Position numbers and translations under genes: made by a program
DNA from: Thermostichus sp. DRC_bins_24
GTDB taxonomy: Bacteria > Cyanobacteriota > Cyanobacteriia > Thermostichales > Thermostichaceae
Direction: 5' to 3'
Assembly: GCA_039794845.1 (NCBI GenBank)
Contig: JAUQVK010000110.1
Span: 1 to 14,294, forward strand
DNA length: 14,294 nucleotides
In this document: positions 195-12,431 of the stretch, in pieces
How positions within the stretch are numbered: the stretch's first letter is position 1
Layout of the letters: the number at the start of each line of letters is the position of its first letter
Notes under the pieces: generated by a model
What the model saw: only the letters and a program-made list of their open reading frames with translations
Database searches by the model: none
What the model was told of the DNA's origin: nothing

Positions 195-1394
195 ATGAAG
201 ATGAGGCTCCCCATCATGAAGCACCTCCCCACCCTGTTCCTGGTTTTGGGAATGGTTTCGGCTCCTGCTCCGGTGAGGGCGAATCCCATCACTGCAGAAG
301 CGGTGATGGCCCTGCAACAGGGGGATCATGCCCAAGCGCTGCCCAGAGCCAGAACCGAGCAGGCATTTCGGGTTGTCCCCTTGGCCAGTGGGTTGGAACA
401 TCCCTGGGGAATGGCCTTTCTGCCGGATGGCTCCATTTTGGTTACGGAACGCCCGGGGCGACTGCGCTTGGTCACCGCCAATGGGCTGGATCCGCAACCG
501 ATTGGCGGCGTACCGGAGGTGGTGGCGCAAGGACAAGGGGGCCTGCTGGACGTGGTGTTGCACCCCGACTACAGCGAGAACGGCTGGATTTATCTGGCCT
601 ATTCCGCCCCAGGGCCCGGCGGGGCAGGAACACGGGTCGCACGGGCTAGGCTAGGCCAGGAAGGACTGTACGACCTGGAAGTGATCTTCGATATGGAGCG
701 CAAAACCCCAGCAGTGCACCATTTCGGGGCACGGCTGGCCTTTGACGAGGAGGGGTTGCTTTACATTGGCACCGGGGATCGGGGGGAACGGAATCGCGCC
801 CAGGATCTCGGGGATCATGCCGGCAAGGTGCTGCGCATCACGGATTCGGGGGGGATCCCGGCAGACAATCCTTTTGTAAACCAAGCGGGGGCCTTGCCGG
901 AAATCTACACCTACGGCAACCGCAACATTCAGGGCCTGACCCGGCATCCCGAAACCGGGGCAATCTGGTCCCATGAGCATGGGCCGCGGGGCGGAGATGA
1001 AATTAACATTATTGCCCCCGGTGTGAACTACGGTTGGCCGTTGATCACCCATGGGCGAGAATATGCGGGCGGGCCGGTGGGCCAAGGGCTGTCGGAAGCC
1101 CCGGGTTTGGCCTCGCCTCTGTTGCACTGGACACCATCTATTGCGCCCTCGGGCATGACGTTTTACACAGGGGAAGCCTTCCCAGAATGGCAGGGGAATC
1201 TGTTTGTGGGGGCGCTGGCAGGCCAACATCTGGCCCGGTTGCAATTGGATGGAGATCGTGTGGTGGCGGAAGAGCGCCTACTCGAAGGCGCTGTCGGTCG
1301 CATTCGGGATGTACGACAGGGGCCGGATGGTTTGCTGTATCTGCTCACGGATGCCCCCAATGGATCCCTGTTGCGGCTAGAGCCGAAATCTTGA
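195..1394 (+). CDS. PQQ-dependent sugar dehydrogenase (soluble aldose dehydrogenase, YliI/Asd, GSDH family), exported
   Basis: Motifs GLEHPWGMAFLPDG, GQGGLLDV, HFGARLAF, YGNRNIQG, EHGPRGGDEINII, NYGWP, IAPSGMTFYTG, GRIRDVRQGPDG; N-terminal signal peptide. Start is ATG 195, 201 or 216; TAAGGA at 187-192. Confidence 0.92.
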   Translation: MKMRLPIMKHLPTLFLVLGMVSAPAPVRANPITAEAVMALQQGDHAQALPRARTEQAFRVVPLASGLEHPWGMAFLPDGSILVTERPGRLRLVTANGLDPQPIGGVPEVVAQGQGGLLDVVLHPDYSENGWIYLAYSAPGPGGAGTRVARARLGQEGLYDLEVIFDMERKTPAVHHFGARLAFDEEGLLYIGTGDRGERNRAQDLGDHAGKVLRITDSGGIPADNPFVNQAGALPEIYTYGNRNIQGLTRHPETGAIWSHEHGPRGGDEINIIAPGVNYGWPLITHGREYAGGPVGQGLSEAPGLASPLLHWTPSIAPSGMTFYTGEAFPEWQGNLFVGALAGQHLARLQLDGDRVVAEERLLEGAVGRIRDVRQGPDGLLYLLTDAPNGSLLRLEPKS

Positions 1395-2469: not shown

Positions 2470-3321
2470 TTAGCCGAGGGAGAGGAAGCGCTCCAGGGCA
2501 GCCACCGCCGCAGGCGGCCATCGCCGGACGGTTTTGACCCACTCTACATCGCCGTAGCGGGGATCCAACCCTTGCACTGCAACCCAGTGACTTTCCGCCT
2601 CTCCGTGGTGGCCCTGGGTCCAAAGAATGGCACTGAGGGCGGCTCGCATGTCCGGGAACTTGGGATACTTCCGCACCAAAGCTCGCATCAGTCGTACCGC
2701 CGCTTCGGTTTCCCCCACCTGATACAAGCTCAGGGCATAGTTGGCTTGGGCAAACGCATAGTCGGGGGCCAATTCTGTGGCATGGCGGTAATCCGCAACC
2801 GCCCGTTGCCAGTCTCCCAAACCGGCTTCCGCATTGCCCCGGTTGTTGTAGGCTGCCGCATCGTAGGGATCCAATTCCAACACCCGTTCGTAATCGGCAA
2901 TGGCCGCCTGCCACTCTCCCAGCCCCTCCAGTGCTGCCCCCCGGTTCAGGTAGGGATCCGGTGCGTTGGGAGCCAAACGAATCGCCTCAGCATAATCCGT
3001 GAGTGCCTGTTGCAGCTTGTGCTGGCTGACGCGGGCATTGCCCCGATTACTCCATAGGGCTGGGTTCTCCGGCTGACGTTCCAACAGCTGGCTCCATAGG
3101 GTTTCCGCCTGGGCAAAATCCCCTCGGTTGGTGGCGGCAAAGGCTGCTTCAAAGAGTTGGTCGATCTCGGGGCTCACTGCCTGTGTGTCTTGCTTGGGGG
3201 CAGGTAGGCCCTTCAACTCAGCAGTCAGACCCGCTCCCGTCCAGGCCAGGATCCCCAGCCAAAGCAGCAGCACCAGCAGCAAAACAGAAACTCCCTTTAG
3301 AAACACTTGGACAGCCTTCAT
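2470..3321 (-). CDS. Tetratricopeptide repeat protein with N-terminal TM/signal anchor
   Basis: About 34-aa repeats (WSNRGNA..., YLNRGAA..., YNNRGNA..., QANYALS...), each ending in L-x-P; hydrophobic N-terminus. ATG 3321 preferred over the ORF-track start 3408. Confidence 0.9.
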   Translation of the reverse strand: MKAVQVFLKGVSVLLLVLLLWLGILAWTGAGLTAELKGLPAPKQDTQAVSPEIDQLFEAAFAATNRGDFAQAETLWSQLLERQPENPALWSNRGNARVSQHKLQQALTDYAEAIRLAPNAPDPYLNRGAALEGLGEWQAAIADYERVLELDPYDAAAYNNRGNAEAGLGDWQRAVADYRHATELAPDYAFAQANYALSLYQVGETEAAVRLMRALVRKYPKFPDMRAALSAILWTQGHHGEAESHWVAVQGLDPRYGDVEWVKTVRRWPPAAVAALERFLSLG

Positions 3322-3426
3322 CGCTTCAATCCGTGTCTTGGGTTGCCCAACCATCTTAAGCGGTTGCCCCCGGGATCCTGCTTCATCCGTTGAGGGCCCC
3401 AGACCCATTGACCCCTGTGCAAGTGC

Positions 3427-3456
3427 TTGCGCTCTGCCGGAGCAACCCGCTATGCT
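3427..3456 (+). promoter_or_regulatory. Putative sigma70-type promoter of upp
   Basis: TTGCGC (3427-3432), 18-bp spacer, TATGCT (3451-3456), 25 bp before the GTG start. Confidence 0.35.
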
Positions 3457-3481
3457 ACCGCCCAGATTGAGGCATTCTTCT

Positions 3482-4141
3482 GTGGCAAGTCAGCAGCTTC
3501 GCGTTTATGTCCCTCCTCATCCGTTAATTAAGCACTGGTTAACCGTGGCTCGGGATGCCGAAACCCCGATGCCCCTGTTTCGGAGCGCCCTGTCGGAATT
3601 GGGCCGTTGGCTCACCTATGAAGCGATGCGGGAATGGATTCCCACCCAAGCCGTGCAGGTGCAAACCCCCCTCGAGCCGGCTCCGGCAGAGGTCATCGCC
3701 CCGGATACCCCGATGGGCATTGTGCCTGTGTTGCGGGCAGGCTTGGCGATGTTGGAGGGTTGTCAGGCCCTATTGCCTCAGGCGCGGATTTTTCATCTGG
3801 GCATGGTGCGGGATGAAAAGACGCTAGAAGCCAGTTGTTACCTAAATCGCCTGCCGGAGCGAATCCCGGAACAGATGCGTATTCTCATTCCGGAGCCGAT
3901 GTTGGCAACCGGAGGGACGTTGGTGCAGGTCTTGGATGAGTTGAAGAAGCGGGGGGCGGATCCCAGCTTGGTGCGGATCGTCAGCGTCTTGGCTGCCCCG
4001 CCGGGGTTACAACGGTTGGGATCCCGTTACCCGATGGTGCAAATTTTTTGCGCCATGATCGACGAGCGGTTGAACGATCAAGGGTTCATCATGCCAGGGC
4101 TAGGGGATGCAGGGGATCGCGCCTTTGGCACAGAGGGGTAG
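3482..4141 (+). CDS. upp: Uracil phosphoribosyltransferase
   Basis: Cyanobacterial-type N-terminus QLRVYVPPHPLIKHWL; VPVLRAGL; PRPP-binding EPMLATGGT; C-terminal GFIMPGLGDAGDRAFGT. GTG start at 3482 with GAGG upstream. Confidence 0.97.
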   Translation: MASQQLRVYVPPHPLIKHWLTVARDAETPMPLFRSALSELGRWLTYEAMREWIPTQAVQVQTPLEPAPAEVIAPDTPMGIVPVLRAGLAMLEGCQALLPQARIFHLGMVRDEKTLEASCYLNRLPERIPEQMRILIPEPMLATGGTLVQVLDELKKRGADPSLVRIVSVLAAPPGLQRLGSRYPMVQIFCAMIDERLNDQGFIMPGLGDAGDRAFGTEG

Positions 4142-4274
4142 TCTCTGAAGGGATGAGGGCTTTCTCTACCGCTAGTGGTTTTACAGCCCTTGCGCGGGTT
4201 TTCTACGGCAGGGCTTGTGCTTTCTTTTCTCGCTTTGCGGGGTCCGGAGGGCTATCTTTCTGGGGGGTGGATCT

Positions 4275-4497
4275 CAACCTCCACGGTTGTTACAGGTGAC
4301 CGGCGGTGCCCTATGGTGGGCGAACGCACTGGCGTGCCCTGGGCGTAAAGGGTTGTAAGTCCATCTGATTGGTGAAACGAACACACATTTGGCAGCAATC
4401 GGTTGTCCTCCGGACGACCTGGGGGGTCACCGAGCTTTTCGCTACGCCTGGCGCTACACTCATTCAACAGGTCATTCAGCAGGTGCCCCGAGGCGGG
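4275..4497 (+). ncRNA. ssrS: Probable 6S RNA (cyanobacterial SsaA type); ends approximate (could span about 4265-4503)
   Basis: Nested pairings read by eye: CCTC 4278-4281/GAGG 4490-4493; GGTGACC 4295-4301/GGTCATT 4470-4476; central bubble; TGGCG..GGGCGTA 4330-4347/TACGCCTGGCGCTA 4443-4456; two apical hairpins (4365-4395, 4399-4433). CTGATTGGTGAAA and ACCGAGCTTTTCGC resemble cyanobacterial 6S motifs as I recall them. TATCTT -10 candidate at 4253-4258. Confidence 0.75.
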
Positions 4498-4645
4498 CCT
4501 GTCGGACTAAACCCATTCTGGTGGGTCAAGCTGTTGGATTATGGAAATGTTGGCCGCTTTAGCCCCAGAGCCTGCTTTCGGGATCCCGGCTGAGCGGGTG
4601 AACTGGGGTTCTGATGGTGTTAGCGCGTTTTCCCCTCCTGCGCCT

Positions 4646-5533
4646 ATGCGACTTGTCCTTACCAGTTTGGATGGCAGCCTGTTGGATATGGAGTCCAATA
4701 GTTACGGTGCTGCCCGGCAAGCCTTGGCTGCTCTAGAGCGTCGCTCCATTCCCTTGGTGCTTTACAGCCTGCGTACCCGCGCTCAGCTGGAACATGTGCG
4801 TCAACAGCTGCGCCTGGAGCACCCATTCATCTGCGAGGATGGTTCCGCCCTCTACATCCCCGAGCACTACTTCCCGGCGGGCATTCTCGATGACCAGTGG
4901 CAGCATCAGCCTCCCTACTACGTGCGGGCCTTGGGGTTGCCCTACCCCCGCTTGCGCCGCATTTTGCAACAGGTGCGCCAAGACTCCCATCTGGATCTGG
5001 TAGGGTTTGGGGATTGGACCGCCGCCGAGTTGGCCGCCGCCACCGGGATCCCTCTGGCCGAGGCAGAACGAGCCCAACAGCGGGAGTACAGTGAGATTTT
5101 TAGCTATTCCGGGGATCCCAAAACCCTACGAGCAGCCTTTGCCCGGCAGGAGGCCAACCTCACCCAGCATCGGCTGCAACTGCGCCAACTTAACCTCTCT
5201 AGCCCGCCACAGAAGTGGTACCTGACCGGGTGGGCTCTGCCGACCAAGGCCACAGAACCCGGTTTCTTACCCGGAGAACAGGCAGTACGGTTGCTGCTGG
5301 ATTGCTACCAACAGCATCTGGGCCAAGTTAAGGCGCTGGGTATTGGCTGCTCCCCGGCGGATACGGCTTTTTTGCGTTGGATGGAACAGAAGGTGGTGCT
5401 TCCGAGCCCTATTGCGGATAGTCTCTGGAGTGAGGCCGAGCCTCAATGGCAATTGGCCCAGCTCCCTGGGCCGGAGGGCTGGAATGAAGTGGTGTTGATG
5501 TGGTTGGAGGAAACAGATCATGGTGATGAATAA
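4646..5533 (+). CDS. HAD-IIB family, mannosyl-3-phosphoglycerate phosphatase (MPGP/YedP)-like protein with degenerate catalytic motifs
   Basis: RLVLTSLDGSLLD, SLRTRAQL, HPFICEDGSALYIP, LGLPY, GFGDWT..ELAAATGIP, AQQREYSE, GIGCSPAD follow the MPGP layout. ATG 4646 places motif I at the N-terminus as expected. Confidence 0.85.
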   Translation: MRLVLTSLDGSLLDMESNSYGAARQALAALERRSIPLVLYSLRTRAQLEHVRQQLRLEHPFICEDGSALYIPEHYFPAGILDDQWQHQPPYYVRALGLPYPRLRRILQQVRQDSHLDLVGFGDWTAAELAAATGIPLAEAERAQQREYSEIFSYSGDPKTLRAAFARQEANLTQHRLQLRQLNLSSPPQKWYLTGWALPTKATEPGFLPGEQAVRLLLDCYQQHLGQVKALGIGCSPADTAFLRWMEQKVVLPSPIADSLWSEAEPQWQLAQLPGPEGWNEVVLMWLEETDHGDE

Positions 5534-6224
5534 AAACCAGATGGGTCGTCGGGCTGCCCACTGGGGCTGGAGGACGGTGGGGTGTGTGCTTGGCTTGGCG
5601 ATCGGGGTGCCTGCCTATGCGGAAGCGCCGATGACCCTGCTGACGGGGGAGCAAACCGTGGCCCAACTGAAAGAAGACGGGGCCCGCTACATGCAGATGG
5701 GCTTTCATACCCTGGCCATCAATGCCTATCGAGGGGCGATTGAGCTGGAGGAGAAGACGCTGGTTTTACCCAGCGAACGGGATGCCGATGTGCCGTTTAA
5801 TCTCGGCCTCATTTACGCCCGTCAGGGTAATCTGCCGGAGGCGCGTGCTGCCTTTCAACGGTCGGTGGATGTGGATCCCAGCAGTTTTAAGGCCCGCTAC
5901 CAGTTGGCCCTGGTGGATTTGAAACTGGGAAATCCGACGGCTGCCAAAGAACAGCTCACCCTCTTGGCCAATGCCGCCACCAGCAATCCCGAAACCCACA
6001 GCCACATTCAGGCTTTGCTGGCCACCCTGGAGTCTGTTCCTCTGCCCAGCCAGAAAGATGACCTAGCGCGCACCCCGGCAGTGGAGTCGGAAGCGGCCAA
6101 ACTGTTGCTCGAACCCCAGAAAACGGAAACAGCCGCCCTGCCCCCGGCGAGCGAAGAGGAATTGCTAGAGGAAGAGAAACCTCTCTCAGCCCTGCAGCGG
6201 TTGCGCCAACGGGAACTGAACTAG
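5520..6224 (+). CDS. Exported tetratricopeptide repeat protein
   Basis: GGAGG at 5506-5510; signal peptide (VLGLAIGVPAYA|E); TPRs such as FNLGLIYARQGNLPEARAAFQRSVDVDP and ARYQLALVDLKLGN; acidic low-complexity tail; overlaps the upstream gene by 14 bp (alternative ATG 5526). Confidence 0.85.
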   Translation: MVMNKNQMGRRAAHWGWRTVGCVLGLAIGVPAYAEAPMTLLTGEQTVAQLKEDGARYMQMGFHTLAINAYRGAIELEEKTLVLPSERDADVPFNLGLIYARQGNLPEARAAFQRSVDVDPSSFKARYQLALVDLKLGNPTAAKEQLTLLANAATSNPETHSHIQALLATLESVPLPSQKDDLARTPAVESEAAKLLLEPQKTETAALPPASEEELLEEEKPLSALQRLRQRELN

Positions 6225-6257
6225 AACCATCTCCGCCCGAGAGGGGAAAGTTTAATA

Positions 6258-6284
6258 CCGGGGATCCCGCTCTGGGATCTCTGG
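6258..6284 (+). terminator. Stem-loop between convergent genes, putative terminator
   Basis: CCGGGGATCCC-GCTCT-GGGATCTCTGG, 11-bp stem with two G-U pairs; lies between stops at 6224 (+) and 6300 (-). No U-tract on the + strand. Confidence 0.4.
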
Positions 6285-6299
6285 CTGCTGGGTCTGGGT

Positions 6300-6446
6300 T
6301 TAGCCCCGTTTGGGATCCGGTTGGCGCTCTTCTGGCTGAGGGCTTTTGGTGGTGAACACCGTGGTGAACATCATCAGCATGCCGCCGCCTAAGATCAGCA
6401 GGGCCAATCCTGCGACTATTCCGTTCATCCAGGTTTGGGCCTCCAT
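6300..6446 (-). CDS. Small single-pass membrane protein, 48 aa (MEAQTWMNGIVAGLALLILGGGMLMMFTTVFTTKSPQPEERQPDPKRG)
   Basis: Manual translation, below the ORF-track cutoff. ATG 6446, TAA 6300-6302, GGAG 10 nt upstream, one uncharged helix of about 23 aa then a charged tail; co-oriented 61 bp downstream of lptF/G. Confidence 0.72.
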   Translation of the reverse strand: MEAQTWMNGIVAGLALLILGGGMLMMFTTVFTTKSPQPEERQPDPKRG

Positions 6447-6507
6447 GGGGGTCTGTCTCCACGATCCAACGCGACTTCGATCCTACCGGAGGAACTTTGG
6501 GCTGCAG

Positions 6508-7710
6508 CTATTGATTGGCCCGGTAAAGCAACCCCAAACCCACCGCTACACAGATCAAATTCGGTAACCAAGCGGCCACCGCTGGCCCTAAGGTGCCTAT
6601 TTGCCCCAAAGCTTGGGTGATAAACAGCAGCACATAGAACGCGAAAATAATCAGCACACTGATGCCCAACCCCAAAGAGGAGCTGGTGCGTTGCGGGCGC
6701 AACCCCAAAGGGGCCCCGATCAGGGTGAAGGCCAGACACACAAAGGGAATGGCATATTTTTGGTTAAGGCTGACCTGGAGGCGTCGCACCCGTTGCAGAT
6801 CTCCAGAACTGGCGATCACGTCGATGTAACGGCTTAGCTCTTGAATGTTCATTTCCTCGGGGCTACGGGCCTCCTGAGCCAGCTCCAGCGGGGCACGGGA
6901 CAGGCGCAATTCCTGGCGGCCAAAGGTAGCGATGTTGCTGTAGGTGCCGTCAGGGGAGACGATGTAATTGGTGCCATCCTCGAACACCCAGATGTTGTTC
7001 TGGGGATCCCAGCGACCCCGTTGGGCCAGCAGGATTTGGTTGAGGGCCTCGTTGGAAAAGTCTAGAACAACAATGCCACGCATTTGGTTGCCATCGAAGC
7101 TGCGGGCATAAAACTGGCGGGTCAACCCCTGCCGACGGGAAAAGCTGCCATCTCCGTCGGGGCTAAGGATCTCGCCAAACTCTTGGTAGAGAATGTTTTC
7201 TCGCCGAAAGTCGGGATCCCGATTCAAGGCCCGATCCAACGTGGTGGCCGCCCGGCGATTGCTACTGGGAACCACCAGCTCGTTGAACAAAAACGTCAAA
7301 CTCGTCACCAGCAAACTAAGGATGAGGGCGGGCACCACCAGGCGATAGAGGCTCACCCCACATCCGCGCATGGCGGTGATTTCGCTATCCGAAGACAAGC
7401 GCCCATAGGCCAGCAGCGTCGCCAACAACATCGACATCGGGAAGGTGAGGACAATAATCCCCGGCGCTCGAAAGGCGAACACCTGCAAGGCTGCCGGAAT
7501 GGAGAGACCCGCTTCCACCACCAGGCGCACCAGCTCAAACAGGGATCCCACCGCCATGACCAAAGCCGTGAAGGCCCCCACCCCAAACAAAAAAGGCAGC
7601 ACCATCTCGGAAATGATGTAGCGATCCATCAAGCCAATCGAACACCAGACGGAAACCGATGGAGTCGTCTTCGGCGAGCGGGTTTGCGGTGGTGTAGAGC
7701 TGACTTTCAC
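6508..7710 (-). CDS. LptF/LptG (YjgP/YjgQ) family LPS export ABC permease
   Basis: MDRYIISE, PMSMLLATLLAYGRLSSDSEITAMRGCGVS, 3 TM + periplasmic domain + 3 TM, KYAIPF, AAWLPN. Start GTG 7710 or ATG 7629. Confidence 0.93.
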   Translation of the reverse strand: MKVSSTPPQTRSPKTTPSVSVWCSIGLMDRYIISEMVLPFLFGVGAFTALVMAVGSLFELVRLVVEAGLSIPAALQVFAFRAPGIIVLTFPMSMLLATLLAYGRLSSDSEITAMRGCGVSLYRLVVPALILSLLVTSLTFLFNELVVPSSNRRAATTLDRALNRDPDFRRENILYQEFGEILSPDGDGSFSRRQGLTRQFYARSFDGNQMRGIVVLDFSNEALNQILLAQRGRWDPQNNIWVFEDGTNYIVSPDGTYSNIATFGRQELRLSRAPLELAQEARSPEEMNIQELSRYIDVIASSGDLQRVRRLQVSLNQKYAIPFVCLAFTLIGAPLGLRPQRTSSSLGLGISVLIIFAFYVLLFITQALGQIGTLGPAVAAWLPNLICVAVGLGLLYRANQ

Positions 7711-7769
7711 GATGCACAGTGGGGGGGTAGGGGGTAGGCAACATAGGGATTCCAACACAATCCCAACAA

Positions 7770-8498
7770 TTACAGGCGGAACTTCTCCCCTAGGTAGTAT
7801 TTGCGCACCAAGGGATCCGCCGCCAACTCAACCGAAGTACCTTTGGCCAGAATCGCCCCATCGTTGAGGATATAGGCGCGATCGGTGATCTCCAGCGTCT
7901 CCCGCACATTGTGGTCGGTGATCAACACGCCAATCCCCCGGTGCTTCAGCTTGGCCACCACCTCCTGAATATCCGCCACCGCAATCGGATCGACCCCTGC
8001 AAACGGCTCATCCAGCAGCAAAAATTTCGGCCCTTGGATCCCGGCGGCAAGGGCACGGGCAATCTCAGCTCGGCGACGTTCCCCCCCCGATACTTGCAAA
8101 CCGAGGCTGCGGGCAACATGGGTGATGCGAAACTCCTCCAGCAGTTGATTCAAGCGTTGCTGCCAGAGGCGGCGGGGCACCCCCGTTTGCTCCATGATCA
8201 GCAGGAGGTTGTCTTGAATGCTGAGACGACGAAAAATGCTCGGCTCCTGAGCCAGATAGCCAATGCCCAGTTGGGCACGGCGGTGCATGGGCAGGTTGGT
8301 GATATCCCGATCGTCCAGCCAGACATGGCCCCGATTCGGCTGGATCAAGCCCGTCATGATGTAGAAGGTGGTGGTTTTCCCCGCCCCGTTGGGCCCAAGC
8401 AGACCGACGATCTCCCCCTGCTGAATGTTCAGGCTGACATCGCTCACCACTTCACGGCGACCATAACGCTTACAGATGTTTTCCAGGTAAATCTGCAT
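7770..8498 (-). CDS. lptB: LPS export ABC transporter ATP-binding protein
   Basis: Walker [66 protein letters not shown]; 242 aa from ATG 8498. Confidence 0.97.
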
Positions 8499-8758
8499 AG
8501 GCTGGCAGGGGGTTTTACCGATTCTAAAGGGTGCTTCCTCCCAACTCAGGAGAAGGTACACCCGAGCCTGGGGCACGAAGGGATCCCAAGCACCAAAGCA
8601 CACCCGTTTCTCTCCTGAAGATGCCCCAAACCCCGCCCACAAACCAGGGGGATCCGAGCAGAATTGGCCACCTTCAAGCTGACCCCGAGAATCTTGGCTA
8701 TCATCGCTTCGGACTGCAACCGCTCACACCCCCCCAGGATGGGATCGTTGGTCTTCCC

Positions 8759-9112
8759 ATGCTCCGTTGCCCGGCCTGCTACTGGATCAACCTCGACTCC
8801 GATTACCACTGTCGCCGTTGTGGATACTTTTTGCGCCAGCGCCCACTCCCCTATTCTGTAAAGAAGGGAAAGAAGGGCTCCTTTATCCAAGCCAAGCCCG
8901 TCCAGAGACGCAAAAAACTTACCCAAGCATGGTGGCAAATCCACTGGGATCGCGTCCTGACTTCGGTGGCAATCCTGGGGGTTCTGGTGGGATTGGGGCA
9001 ACTGTCTTGGTATTGGATACAACCCATGCTGCAGGATCCCCCCCTTCCGAATTTCGGCGTTGATGCAGAAGCGCCGAGCCGACAAGACAACGAACGCCAA
9101 CGCACCTTCTGA
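8759..9112 (+). CDS. Zinc-ribbon domain membrane protein (hypothetical), 117 aa
   Basis: CPAC-x10-CRRC directly after ATG 8759, Lys/Arg-rich linker, one TM helix (VLTSVAILGVLVGLGQLSWYWI). Confidence 0.75.
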   Translation: MLRCPACYWINLDSDYHCRRCGYFLRQRPLPYSVKKGKKGSFIQAKPVQRRKKLTQAWWQIHWDRVLTSVAILGVLVGLGQLSWYWIQPMLQDPPLPNFGVDAEAPSRQDNERQRTF

Positions 9113-9257
9113 GAGCGAATCTGTTAGATTGAGCCGGACAAAAAGGTTCAAGGGTGGTCGAAGCCAGTAGATGCCACTATCATATGACCAACGCAGAAGA
9201 ACTCCGGTCTGCTGCAACCTCACATTGTTAACGTTGAAACTGTAGGGCTTGGCAACT

Positions 9258-9743
9258 ATGAATCTGAAAGTTCCCGCCATTTTGGCACTGCTTACCACGG
9301 CAGCTGTGGCCTCTACTGCAGCAGCCACAACTTACAACTCCTGCTTCATGCGCTATCTGGTGGCTTCCAAAACCTGTGTCAACTGCCGCATGGGATCCAT
9401 CGAGTTGAACGATCTGGATTTGTCCGAGGCCAATTTCAGCGGTTCCGACTTAATTGAGGCCAATTTCGAGCGCACTACTCTAACTGGCGCCGATCTCAGC
9501 CAATCCTACTTGGTGGGGGCCAACCTGCGTCAGGCCAAATTGGGGGAAGCCAACCTGAGTGGTGCTTACCTGGAGGGGGCGGATTTACGCGGGGCAGATT
9601 TGCGTGGGGCGGATCTGTCTTCTGCCTCTTTGTACGGAGCTGACCTGCGTGGAGCGGACCTGCGCGGCGCCAACTTGATCGGGGCCGACCTGCGTTTTAC
9701 CCGCACCTGGGGTGCCCGCATGCAGGGTGCTGTGACCCAGTAG
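9258..9743 (+). CDS. Exported/lumenal pentapeptide-repeat protein
   Basis: Signal peptide, TCVNC cap motif, then tandem A(D/N)Lxx pentapeptides (ADLRG repeats), visible as 15-nt DNA periodicity around 9540-9695. Confidence 0.93.
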
Positions 9744-9860: not shown

Positions 9861-9941
9861 TGCGGATGGCGAGACTCGAACTCGCAAGGATAAACCACAC
9901 GCCCCTCAAACGTGCGCGTATACCAATTCCGCCACATCCGC
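9861..9941 (-). tRNA. trnL: tRNA-Leu(GAG)
   Basis: Reverse complement GCGGATGTGGCGGAATTGGTATACGCGCACGTTTGAGGGGCGTGTGGTTTATCCTTGCGAGTTCGAGTCTCGCCATCCGCA: acceptor GCGGATG/CATCCGC, anticodon loop TT-GAG-GG, extended variable arm, GTTCGAG T-loop; CCA not encoded. Confidence 0.97.
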
Positions 9942-10972: not shown

Positions 10973-11291
10973 GTGGGCTCCCTCCCTAGAAGAAAAGCAG
11001 AGCGCTGCAGGTCTTCGACAACCCTTGCTCATCTTATCCCGGTCTTTCTTGCAAGTTAGCCAATGCAGATTGTTCCGGCGTCGTGCCCAACGGGACGGAG
11101 TCCTTCATCTACCTTGCCCCCTATCGCCGGTGCAGTCGGAAAGGGCTGTAAGGGCTTTTCTCACCCCTAACGGATTTCCCCGGTAGCCTCTAAGATTAAG
11201 GGTAGGGCACCTCATTCTCCTCCGGAGGAGGGGAAGAGTTATCGTGATTTGCCTACGGCACCTGGGTGGGAACCGCGCAAGTCGGAGGGTC

Positions 11292-12431
11292 ATGGCAGAA
11301 ATTGGCATTGTTACCGCTCAAAACTTCGATCGGCGGCGGGGTCAAATTCATGTCTACGATGGCGAGGGCAAAGGCAAGTCTCAAGCGGCTCTAGGAGTTG
11401 TGCTGCGTTCCATTGGCTTAGGCATTGAAAACGCTGCCCCCAGCCGTGTGTTGTTGGTGCGTTTCCTGAAAGGGCCAGGCCGTCCTTATGCAGAAGATGC
11501 TGCCATTGCTGCGCTGCAGCGGGGTTTCCCTCATTTGATCGACCAGTTGCGTACCGGACGGGGGGAGTTTTTCGGGCCAGAAGACATTACCAAGTTCGAC
11601 CGGCAGGAGGCTCGCCGCGGCTGGGATGTGGCCAAAGGGGCTCTGGCCTCTGGGTTTTACTCGGTGGTGGTATTGGATGAGCTGAACCCGGTGCTGGATC
11701 TGGGGCTGTTGCCTGTGGAAGAAGTTGTGAGCACCCTGCGGCAAAAGCCCGAACCGATGGAGGTGATCATCACCGGTCGCGGTGCCCCCAAGGAGATCAT
11801 CGATCTGGCGGACTTGCACTCGGAAATGCGCAGTATGCGCCAAGCGGAAGGGGGGAACCGCCAAAATGGCCAGTTCCATTCCAGCGGCATTGAGATTTAT
11901 ACCGGCGCGGGCAAGGGCAAATCCACCAGTGCCTTGGGGCGAGCCCTGCAGGCCATTGGGCGCGGCATCAGCAAAGATCTCTCCCATCGCGTGTTGATTA
12001 TGCAGTGGCTGAAGGGGGGAACGGGCTACACCGAGGATGCGGCGATTCGTGCTTTGCGAGAAAGCTACCCCGACTTGGTGGATCACCAGCGCTGTGGTCG
12101 GGATGCGATTGTCTGGCGGGGCAAACAGCAAGAGATCGACTACGTGGAGGCGGAACGCGGTTGGGAACTGGCTCGGGCAGCCATGGCCTCAGGGCTTTAC
12201 AAAACGATCATCATGGACGAGCTGAACCCGACGGTGGATCTGGAGCTATTGGATGTGGATCCGATCGTGCAGGCGCTCTTGCGTAAACCCCGCGATACCG
12301 AAATCATCATCACAGGCCGTTGCCATGCCCCACTACCCTACTTTGAGCTGGCCTCTGTGCATTCGGAAATGGTGAGTCACAAGCACTATGCCGAGCAGGG
12401 GGCAGACCTGCGGCGGGGCGTCGATTATTAG
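11292..12431 (+). CDS. cobO: Cob(I)yrinic acid a,c-diamide adenosyltransferase (CobO/BtuR), cyanobacterial tandem two-domain form
   Basis: Two copies of the CobA/BtuR domain: IHVYDGEGKGKS..LDELNP..EVIITGR and IEIYTGAGKGKS..MDELNP..EIIITGR; ends RRGVDY. ATG 11292 with GGAGG at 11284-11288. Confidence 0.93.
   Translation: MAEIGIVTAQNFDRRRGQIHVYDGEGKGKSQAALGVVLRSIGLGIENAAPSRVLLVRFLKGPGRPYAEDAAIAALQRGFPHLIDQLRTGRGEFFGPEDITKFDRQEARRGWDVAKGALASGFYSVVVLDELNPVLDLGLLPVEEVVSTLRQKPEPMEVIITGRGAPKEIIDLADLHSEMRSMRQAEGGNRQNGQFHSSGIEIYTGAGKGKSTSALGRALQAIGRGISKDLSHRVLIMQWLKGGTGYTEDAAIRALRESYPDLVDHQRCGRDAIVWRGKQQEIDYVEAERGWELARAAMASGLYKTIIMDELNPTVDLELLDVDPIVQALLRKPRDTEIIITGRCHAPLPYFELASVHSEMVSHKHYAEQGADLRRGVDY

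Follow-up and report, generated by a model that had tools for sequence, protein, structure and literature searches.

A stand-alone HAD-IIB protein of Thermostichus as a probable pseudo-phosphatase descended from glucosyl-3-phosphoglycerate phosphatase

The window analysed here is a 14,294-nt stretch of the genome of the cyanobacterium Thermostichus sp. DRC_bins_24 (assembly GCA_039794845.1, contig JAUQVK010000110.1), and our subject is a gene on its forward strand that encodes a protein of the HAD-IIB (haloacid dehalogenase) type and overlaps, at its 3′ end, the gene of a TPR protein with a signal peptide (Table 1). A first-pass annotation, made from the letters of the DNA, had called the product an MPGP-like (mannosyl-3-phosphoglycerate phosphatase-like) protein that looks catalytically dead and is retained rather than decaying. 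Our results support this view. The protein is probably an exapted pseudo-GpgP, that is, a dead relative of glucosyl-3-phosphoglycerate phosphatase (GpgP), retained by selection after loss of its pathway and now likely to act as a non-catalytic binder.

Table 1. Features of the window around the HAD-IIB gene
Feature	Position	Strand	Remarks
Terminator-like hairpin between upp and the pseudo-phosphatase/TPR unit, which it sets off	4192..4220	+	Consensus scan only
Non-coding block GGTCAAGCTGTTGGATTATGGAAATGTTGGCCGC	4523..4559	+	About 90-125 nt upstream of the start; alignment of 11 genus upstream regions
CDS of the probable HAD-IIB (GpgP/MpgP-type) pseudo-phosphatase	4646..5533	+	295 aa plus stop; no internal stops in translation
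Ser7 codon AGT at the motif I nucleophile Asp position (TSLDGS)	4664..4666	+	AGT in 10/11, AGC in 1/11 genus genomes
Asp9 codon GAT, second motif I Asp (general acid/base)	4670..4672	+	Kept; GAT in 11/11 genus genomes
Motif II region S41-L42-R43-T44	4766..4777	+	Ser41/Thr44 kept; family Ser42-Lys43 replaced by Leu-Arg
Cap-domain motifs GFGDWT (5003-5020, residues 120-125) and QREYSE (5078-5095, residues 145-150)	5003..5095	+	
Remodelled motif III loop, residues 196-212	5231..5281	+	Genus-specific insertion; no conserved Lys
Motif IV C235-S-P-A-D239 (GIGCSPAD)	5348..5362	+	First Asp (Mg2+ ligand) replaced by Cys, Asn by Ala; last Asp kept
Shine-Dalgarno-like GGAGGAA for the TPR gene	5506..5512	+	Inside pseudo-phosphatase codons 287-289; 7 nt before the TPR ATG
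TPR protein gene, 234 aa, N-terminal signal peptide (…AYA|EAP)	5520..6224	+	Overlaps the pseudo-phosphatase stop by 14 nt (ATGGTGATGAATAA); Pfam TPR families
Terminator-like hairpin after the TPR gene	6326..6343	+	Consensus scan only

Gene model, fold and active-site residues

The start of the gene was placed at ATG 4646, because all 20 orthologs first examined have an ATG aligned with it (their proteins begin with MR or MK) and the upstream alignment of congeners contains indels in 4541-4645 that are not multiples of three. A longer open reading frame (ORF) from ATG 4541 was ruled out by the same ortholog starts and frame-breaking indels. The frame from 4646 is full length (295 aa) and includes both cap motifs, GFGDWT and QREYSE, as the first-pass annotation had stated.

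Among the family models, NF009342 (PRK12702), which NCBIfam offers as an equivalog model under the name 'mannosyl-3-phosphoglycerate phosphatase', aligned with residues 1-295 of the protein (model positions 1-302) at 593.4 bits, 2.6 bits short of its cut-off of 596. The same model matched 20/20 same-family orthologs tested, with a best E-value of 5.9e-209. Scores were below threshold for TIGR01486 (MPGP family; 140.3 bits vs. a cut-off of 164.75), TIGR02461 (120 vs. 244) and the YedP-type TIGR02463 (94.5 vs. 282), and Pfam returned only sub-threshold Hydrolase_3 and S6PP matches. The nearest solved structures by sequence were T. thermophilus MpgP (3ztw, E 7e-17), P. horikoshii MPGP (1wzc) and E. 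coli YedP (1xvi). An AlphaFold2 model built with 29 sequences reached a pLDDT of 92.2 and a pTM of 0.90, and the first three proteins found with it by Foldseek were again T. thermophilus MpgP, P. horikoshii MPGP and E. coli YedP (E 7.5e-21 to 1e-15, TM 0.64-0.88), the top match being T. thermophilus MpgP (3zty/3ztw; E 7.5e-21 to 2.2e-20, TM 0.70-0.84). The ESM Atlas look-up gave HAD-IIB/MPGP clusters only. As sequence matches, model confidence and Foldseek agree, assignment of the predicted structure to the MpgP/GpgP fold, with a Rossmann-like HAD core and a C2B cap, can be regarded as secure.

In HAD-type GpgP and MpgP enzymes four Asp residues are invariant and divalent cations are required, as stated in PMC3240985. 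Section 2.1.2 of PMC9971976 describes the first Asp of motif I as the phosphorylated nucleophile, with the D473A replacement abolishing the sucrose-phosphate phosphatase (SPP) activity of SPS7942. In the window protein, the DNA confirmed the earlier readings of TSLDGS in motif I, with a Ser codon AGT at 4664-4666, and of GCSPAD in motif IV, with the Cys235 codon TGC at 5348-5350. HMMER alignment to E. coli YedP (1xvi) sets Ser7 and Asp9 against the first and second Asp of DLDGT, and Cys235 and Asp239 against the first and last Asp of GDGPND; two of the four defining Asp ('DDDD') remain, D9 and D239. The motif III Lys, also reported as lost by the first-pass annotation, is indeed missing: the loop has no conserved Lys, HMMER sets Gly210 against the YedP Lys and MAFFT aligns the outgroup Lys with Pro199. 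The exact column of this residue is ambiguous because 12-14 residues are inserted into the loop in the genus. Lys201 of the window protein occurs in 0/10 congeners, and pLDDT dips in the region, to 74, 87 and 67 for residues 181-190, 191-200 and 201-210, respectively.

Residue tallies for the clade were made on 29 orthologs, with the pseudogene of the congener G002 left out, and not on a 37-sequence set that took in fragments and the intact protein P0044; outgroup proteins of 200-340 aa were used for comparisons of conservation and of 200-330 aa for the tree. The clade departs from residues conserved at 80-98% in 147 outgroup MPGP-family proteins at D7, T11, Y18, S42, K43 (to R), E47 (to Q), N65 (to D), P151, G187, R189, K199, G211, D235, N238 and D247. 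Both phosphoryl-site Lys residues are affected: K43 has given way to R (20/29 orthologs) and K199 is gone, whereas the outgroup holds them at 96% and 92%. Outgroup values for S42, D235 and N238 are 93%, 84% and 85%. The clade keeps T44, E64, G66, R146, E150, D239, G278 and W279, and for R146 and E150 the conservation spans both clade and outgroup. The several active-site losses noticed at first are thus borne out, and there are more of them.

Both the nucleophile Asp and the motif IV Asp are kept in only 2/29 orthologs (G025 and G027) and in 0/10 congeners; among 153 outgroup sequences, the two positions are Asp in 149 and 127, respectively. Ser7 and Cys235 occur in 11/11 genus genomes, with Cys235 encoded by TGC in six and TGT in five. 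Arg43 is encoded by three synonymous codons in the genus, and all three residues have been preserved there through synonymous codon changes. Since Asp to Ser (AGT) and Asp to Cys (TGC) need two base changes each, and both replacements are common to all 11 genus genomes, the losses are not attributable to chance or sequencing error. With the nucleophile Asp, the first motif IV Asp, the motif III Lys and other phosphoryl-site residues replaced, canonical Asp-based, Mg2+-dependent phosphoryl transfer would have been lost.

The protein might instead still be an enzyme, one with non-canonical chemistry on a substrate other than glucosyl- or mannosyl-3-phosphoglycerate (GPG/MPG) and with neither a phospho-Asp7 nor the Mg2+ site; we consider this unlikely. 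Such an enzyme would use Asp9, Asp239, Ser41 and Thr44, and in the genus Ser7 or Cys235. Position 9 is D or E in 27/29 orthologs (D 22, E 5, S 1, Q 1), D239 is invariant and S41 and T44 conserved, the genus has fixed Ser7 and Cys235 despite synonymous codon changes, and purifying selection is as strong as on neighbour genes, all of which would suit an active protein. Clade-wide, however, neither position 7 (S 17, G 3, N 3, D 3, R 2, T 1) nor position 235 (C 13, S 10, T 3, D 2, W 1) is fixed, and relaxed constraint therefore fits better than a new catalytic residue. The phosphoryl-stabilising Lys K43 and K199 are gone, as are N65 and N238, and we know of no HAD phosphotransferase that works without the motif I nucleophile Asp.

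Within the 90% cluster of the window protein, database names comprise 'hypothetical protein', 'HAD hydrolase family protein' and 'mannosyl-3-phosphoglycerate phosphatase'. NF009342 itself seems to have been built on the catalytically dead clade. Its product name is probably wrong for the clade, an over-annotation, as the active-site residues of the matching proteins do not support it.

Distribution, selection and origin of the clade

In a search of 41 related genomes, every one of the 22 from the window's family and of the 7 from the sister family had an ortholog, which in one same-family genome is a pseudogene. Eleven genomes from other families of the class yielded no ortholog, three of them having only a paralog of 35-38% identity. 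With the clade profile, scores of at least 261 bits were obtained in a 401-genome sample of the class only in families f1 (21/22), f2 (7/7) and f27 (2/2), the next best score being 126 bits. Library-wide, 2,190 family members were retrieved at E<=1e-3; five representatives scored at least 220 bits, followed by a gap to 140 bits. In the genomes searched the clade is confined to one cyanobacterial order, comprising Thermostichus and its relatives as far as Synechococcus sp. PCC 7336.

Pairwise ratios of nonsynonymous to synonymous substitution (dN/dS, NG86 method) over 55 genus pairs had a median of 0.104 (range 0.040-0.195) at a median dS of 0.82, and they are approximate because dS among these pairs is high (median ~0.8); the related genomes are, moreover, non-independent samples. 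The value falls between those of the neighbouring genes upp (0.055) and TPR (0.135). It was lowest, at 0.05-0.08, over the first 150 aligned codons, a stretch that includes the dead motif I, and an alignment of 20 same-family orthologs has 68 invariant columns. Purifying selection acts on the protein as a whole, which is kept rather than decaying. In the congener G002 (2.2-Mb genome) the copy is a pseudogene (L042, G002:C19, ~940-1300, minus strand) that has lost about 120 N-terminal codons and contains stops and frameshifts.

These data bear directly on the possibility that the gene is functionless and decaying, with a frame that is open by chance. The multiple active-site losses, the G002 pseudogene and the partner synthase that was not found (see below) would agree with decay; a frame intact in 29 genomes at 45-91% identity, a median dN/dS of 0.10 over 55 pairs, the 68 invariant columns and a high-confidence structure model would not. 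This explanation is very improbable and is already contradicted by the conservation data. The claim of the first-pass annotation that the protein is dead and retained is supported by ortholog residues and by dN/dS: close orthologs do not keep both aspartates, and the ratio is far from 1.

The nearest proteins outside the clade are P0044, from a metagenome-assembled genome of Leptolyngbya sp. (47% identity), and P0216 (G076); they come from another cyanobacterial family, and both retain DLDGT, SSKT, ENG, DKG and GLGDxPND. In a maximum-likelihood tree of 74 rows (quick IQ-TREE search, SH-aLRT support only), P0044 is sister to the 29 orthologs with a support of 99, and these form a clade, also at 99, on a long stem of 0.56. 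G025 and G027, which keep three Asp, branch first, and the window's family forms one group at 91. The nucleophile position undergoes at least three state changes on the tree. The earliest-branching members have already lost the ancestral residue at K43, N65, K199 and N238, and because they still have three Asp, the residues indicate a stepwise decay of the active site in which Lys and Asn were lost first and Asp later, more than once.

In both f27 genomes, an open frame of 419-431 aa lies immediately upstream of the intact phosphatase gene. The upstream protein of G054 matches NF040724, a model of Methanococcoides-type GpgS (glucosyl-3-phosphoglycerate synthase), over its full length with 510.8 bits (cut-off 700), and its PDB matches are GpgS and MpgS structures. 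With the G054 protein and NF040724 as queries, GpgS was found in 8/41 genomes, exactly those with an intact MPGP-family paralog. The two genes are adjacent in five sister-family genomes, which presumably have a working glucosylglycerate pathway. As an additional observation, L044, L047, L048, L049 and G027:C430 of the sister family have a dead copy together with a separate intact MPGP-family gene adjoining a GpgS-type synthase. Intact sister-family paralogs read TDLDATL or TDLDGTL … ALGDSPND, and in paralogs of other families (G031, G036, G038) motif IV reads GLGNSPND.

GpgS was found in 0/23 genomes of the window's family, the 99.9%-complete window genome included, with NF040724 and the sister's GpgS protein as queries. 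The MpgS model PF09488 gave no match in the window genome and nothing above cut-off in nine other genomes tested; the actinobacterial GpgS model NF010496 reached at best 50.6 bits in the window genome (cut-off 262) and likewise stayed below cut-off in nine other genomes. The absence of an MPG or GPG synthase gene from the window, noted at first pass, is therefore true of the whole genome. The only other HAD-IIB gene from an MPGP-family search of this genome is a Cof-type hydrolase. As the partner synthase was not found, the window's family would have no substrate pathway for such a phosphatase.

Since the intact sisters adjoin GpgS, while no GpgS was found in the window's family, the ancestor was very probably a GpgP in a gpgS-gpgP pair, with the window protein as a remnant left after loss of the pathway. 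The MPGP-like label holds for the fold, which is MpgP-type; 'GpgP-like' fits the protein better, because its nearest intact relatives lie directly downstream of a GpgS-type synthase.

The overlapping TPR gene and the surrounding sequence

Conserved parts of the TPR protein are the mature N-terminus (PPMxLLTGExTVAQLKEDGxRY) and the C-terminal LQRLRQRELN; it also has a disordered tail. Its gene overlaps the pseudo-phosphatase gene by 11-26 nt in 21/22 same-family genomes in which the latter is intact, G016 being the exception, and the two genes are probably translationally coupled in this family. In the sister family, the TPR gene is directly downstream in 0/7 loci. An ortholog was not found genome-wide in four sister-family genomes or in G016, where only generic TPR matches of 27-37 bits, or none, were obtained. 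The TPR gene appears restricted to the window's family. As the pairing is absent from sister-family loci and genomes, it is a family-level addition and not the reason for the existence of the clade.

One could suppose that the HAD-like protein is a dedicated cytoplasmic partner of the co-transcribed TPR protein, e.g. a pre-export chaperone or an assembly factor. The almost general overlap, the lack of a terminator-like site between the two genes in a consensus scan and the GGAGGAA site within the last pseudo-phosphatase codons would speak for such a bond. Yet the pairing is younger than the pseudo-phosphatase clade and less widespread, as the sister-family loci and the searches of the four sister-family genomes and G016 indicate, and G002 has kept an intact TPR gene (73% identity) although the pseudo-phosphatase gene next to it is broken. 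In addition, the TPR protein has a cleavable-looking signal peptide and the HAD-like protein has none, so that the mature proteins would be found in different compartments. We thus hold a dedicated partnership to be quite improbable. A complex prediction for the HAD-like protein and the mature TPR protein (residues 36-234) scored 0.00 and carries no weight either way. L028 (G013), with a TPR frame of only 180 aa, was excluded from the alignments of the TPR (A2) and HAD-like (A3) proteins.

The conserved tail WLEETDHGDE was considered as an EEVD-like TPR-binding peptide and set aside, as its codons carry the Shine-Dalgarno site and the start of the TPR gene. In G002 the last ~14 pseudo-phosphatase codons (VVLRWLEETDHGDE), which hold this site and the TPR start codon, are unbroken. 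Conservation of the C-terminus would for these reasons in good part be a constraint at the nucleotide level.

Upstream of the gene, the block at 4523-4559 is almost invariant in the genus upstream regions that include it and is possibly a promoter, an operator or another regulatory site. It contains ATG 4541, the source of the misleading longer ORF. A consensus scan of 4000-6600 gave no match to a sigma-70-like promoter, and no NtcA-type GTAN8TAC site was found upstream of the gene in 11 congeners. An Rfam scan of the window returned only the tRNA at 9861-9941 (minus strand) and no riboswitch near the pseudo-phosphatase gene.

The upp gene lies upstream in 17/20 loci examined. In the window its ORF (3128-4141, plus strand) is listed from TTG 3128 (337 aa), the UPRTase domain begins at residue 128, and the true start is probably near 3509. 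Outside the window's family, the genes next to the pseudo-phosphatase gene, among them glgA, a ROK glucokinase, transketolase/DHFR and a His-phosphatase, point mostly to sugar metabolism, a tendency too weak to use. Convergent to the TPR gene, the minus strand of the window at 6508-9328 holds genes for an LptF/LptG permease (6508-7758) and an ABC ATPase (7770-8642), and then a 260-aa ORF (8546-9328) with no Pfam or NCBIfam match. The plus-strand gene at 11244-12431 encodes a 395-aa cob(I)yrinic acid a,c-diamide adenosyltransferase of the long PRK07413 type (730 bits), whose two CobA/CobO/BtuR stretches represent a duplicated domain.

Interpretation and comparison with known systems

The findings are best accommodated by a full-length, folded HAD-IIB protein of GpgP/MpgP descent that would now bind a ligand or a protein partner without catalysis. 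Binding could use the retained cleft between core and cap (E64, R146, E150, S41, T44, D9 and D239) and a putative clade-specific surface made up of R24, E31, R32, R33, H59, W85, Y154, W191, C220, H224, W268 and W286. The conserved clade-specific residues further include G21, A22, A29 and D117. A HAD fold, absence of the nucleophile Asp and retention under purifying selection, by which a HAD pseudo-phosphatase is recognized, were all found here.

Several points weigh against this interpretation. Loss of activity is something that we infer from the residues, and a phosphate-binding or residual catalytic site may persist, given the acidic position 9, the invariant D239 and the kept S41 and T44. 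The conserved non-motif positions Y18, G187 and R189 are lost, and the ancestral pocket is thus not intact. No conserved gene neighbourhood was found outside the window's family. Finally, the gene is dispensable at least in G002, which has let it decay.

A more specific proposal is that of a metabolite receptor exapted from GpgP, in which the Mg-free, remodelled cleft would hold a carbon metabolite that is phosphorylated or carboxylated, such as 3-phosphoglycerate or glycosyl-glycerates taken up from the mat, without turning it over, and closure of the cap would signal to a partner. This has, in our opinion, only a small chance of being correct. If true, carbon or osmotic status would be tied to a co-translated, secreted TPR envelope protein in the Thermostichus family, and a stand-alone bacterial HAD pseudo-phosphatase would act as a sensor. 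The first-pass annotation had put forward a role as a ligand sensor or scaffold; of possible ligands, the sugar-phosphoglycerates that it named are less likely, because the synthase was not found and Y18, G187 and R189 are lost, even though R146, E150 and E64 remain.

Whichever ligand or partner a non-catalytic pseudo-GpgP might bind, the case would offer a clean and datable conversion of a bacterial enzyme into a pseudoenzyme with all stages present in living genomes: intact gpgS-gpgP pairs in a sister family, loss of Lys and Asn with three Asp kept, loss of Asp at least three times, and one pseudogene. It would mean that selection can keep a phosphatase beyond the life of its pathway, and it points to a non-catalytic role in early-branching hot-spring cyanobacteria. 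In metabolic reconstructions of mat organisms, NF009342 and several database names would falsely suggest that mannosylglycerate or glucosylglycerate is made. Literature searches found no description of the clade as a pseudo-enzyme and nothing else on it, and what they returned on pseudophosphatases together with haloacid dehalogenases concerned eukaryotes only. The sequence family is already in the databases (NF009342) and inactive HAD modules are a known phenomenon; what is new is the stand-alone, order-wide, apparently dead GpgP without a synthase.

Of the characterized systems, MpgP/GpgP (TIGR01486; 3ztw/3zty of T. thermophilus, 1wzc/2zos of P. horikoshii) shares the fold and the domain order with the window protein (TM 0.70-0.88), and MpgP is 26% identical to it. 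Common features are the cap motifs GFGDW and REYSE, E64, G66, T44, D239 and GPEGW. In contrast to these enzymes, the window protein lacks two of the four invariant Asp, both conserved Lys, N65 and N238, it has the motif III insertion and a clade-specific acidic tail (WLEETDHGDE), and no synthase partner was found in its genome. The intact sisters P0044 and P0216 have the C-terminus GPEGWNEAVLxWLE in common with it; they possess all catalytic motifs and an adjoining NF040724-type GpgS, whereas the window protein has neither. E. coli YedP (1xvi) can be aligned with it end to end, including the C-terminal GPEGW, yet retains DLDGT and GDGPND, both of which the window protein lacks.

A functional parallel may be seen in sucrose-phosphate synthase (SPS). 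Non-catalytic relatives there are the SPP-like (PHD) domain of Synechocystis PCC 6803 SPS and inactive plant SPP isoforms. According to section 2.1.2 of PMC9971976, the Synechocystis domain, a HAD-IIB module, lacks the motif I nucleophile Asp, is inactive and has been proposed as a binder of sucrose-6-phosphate or a regulator. The PHD domain, of the SPP subfamily, is part of a fusion with its synthase, whereas the window protein stands alone, belongs to the GpgP/MpgP subfamily and has no synthase. By analogy, the window protein might work as the SPS PHD domain is proposed to do, that is, by binding.

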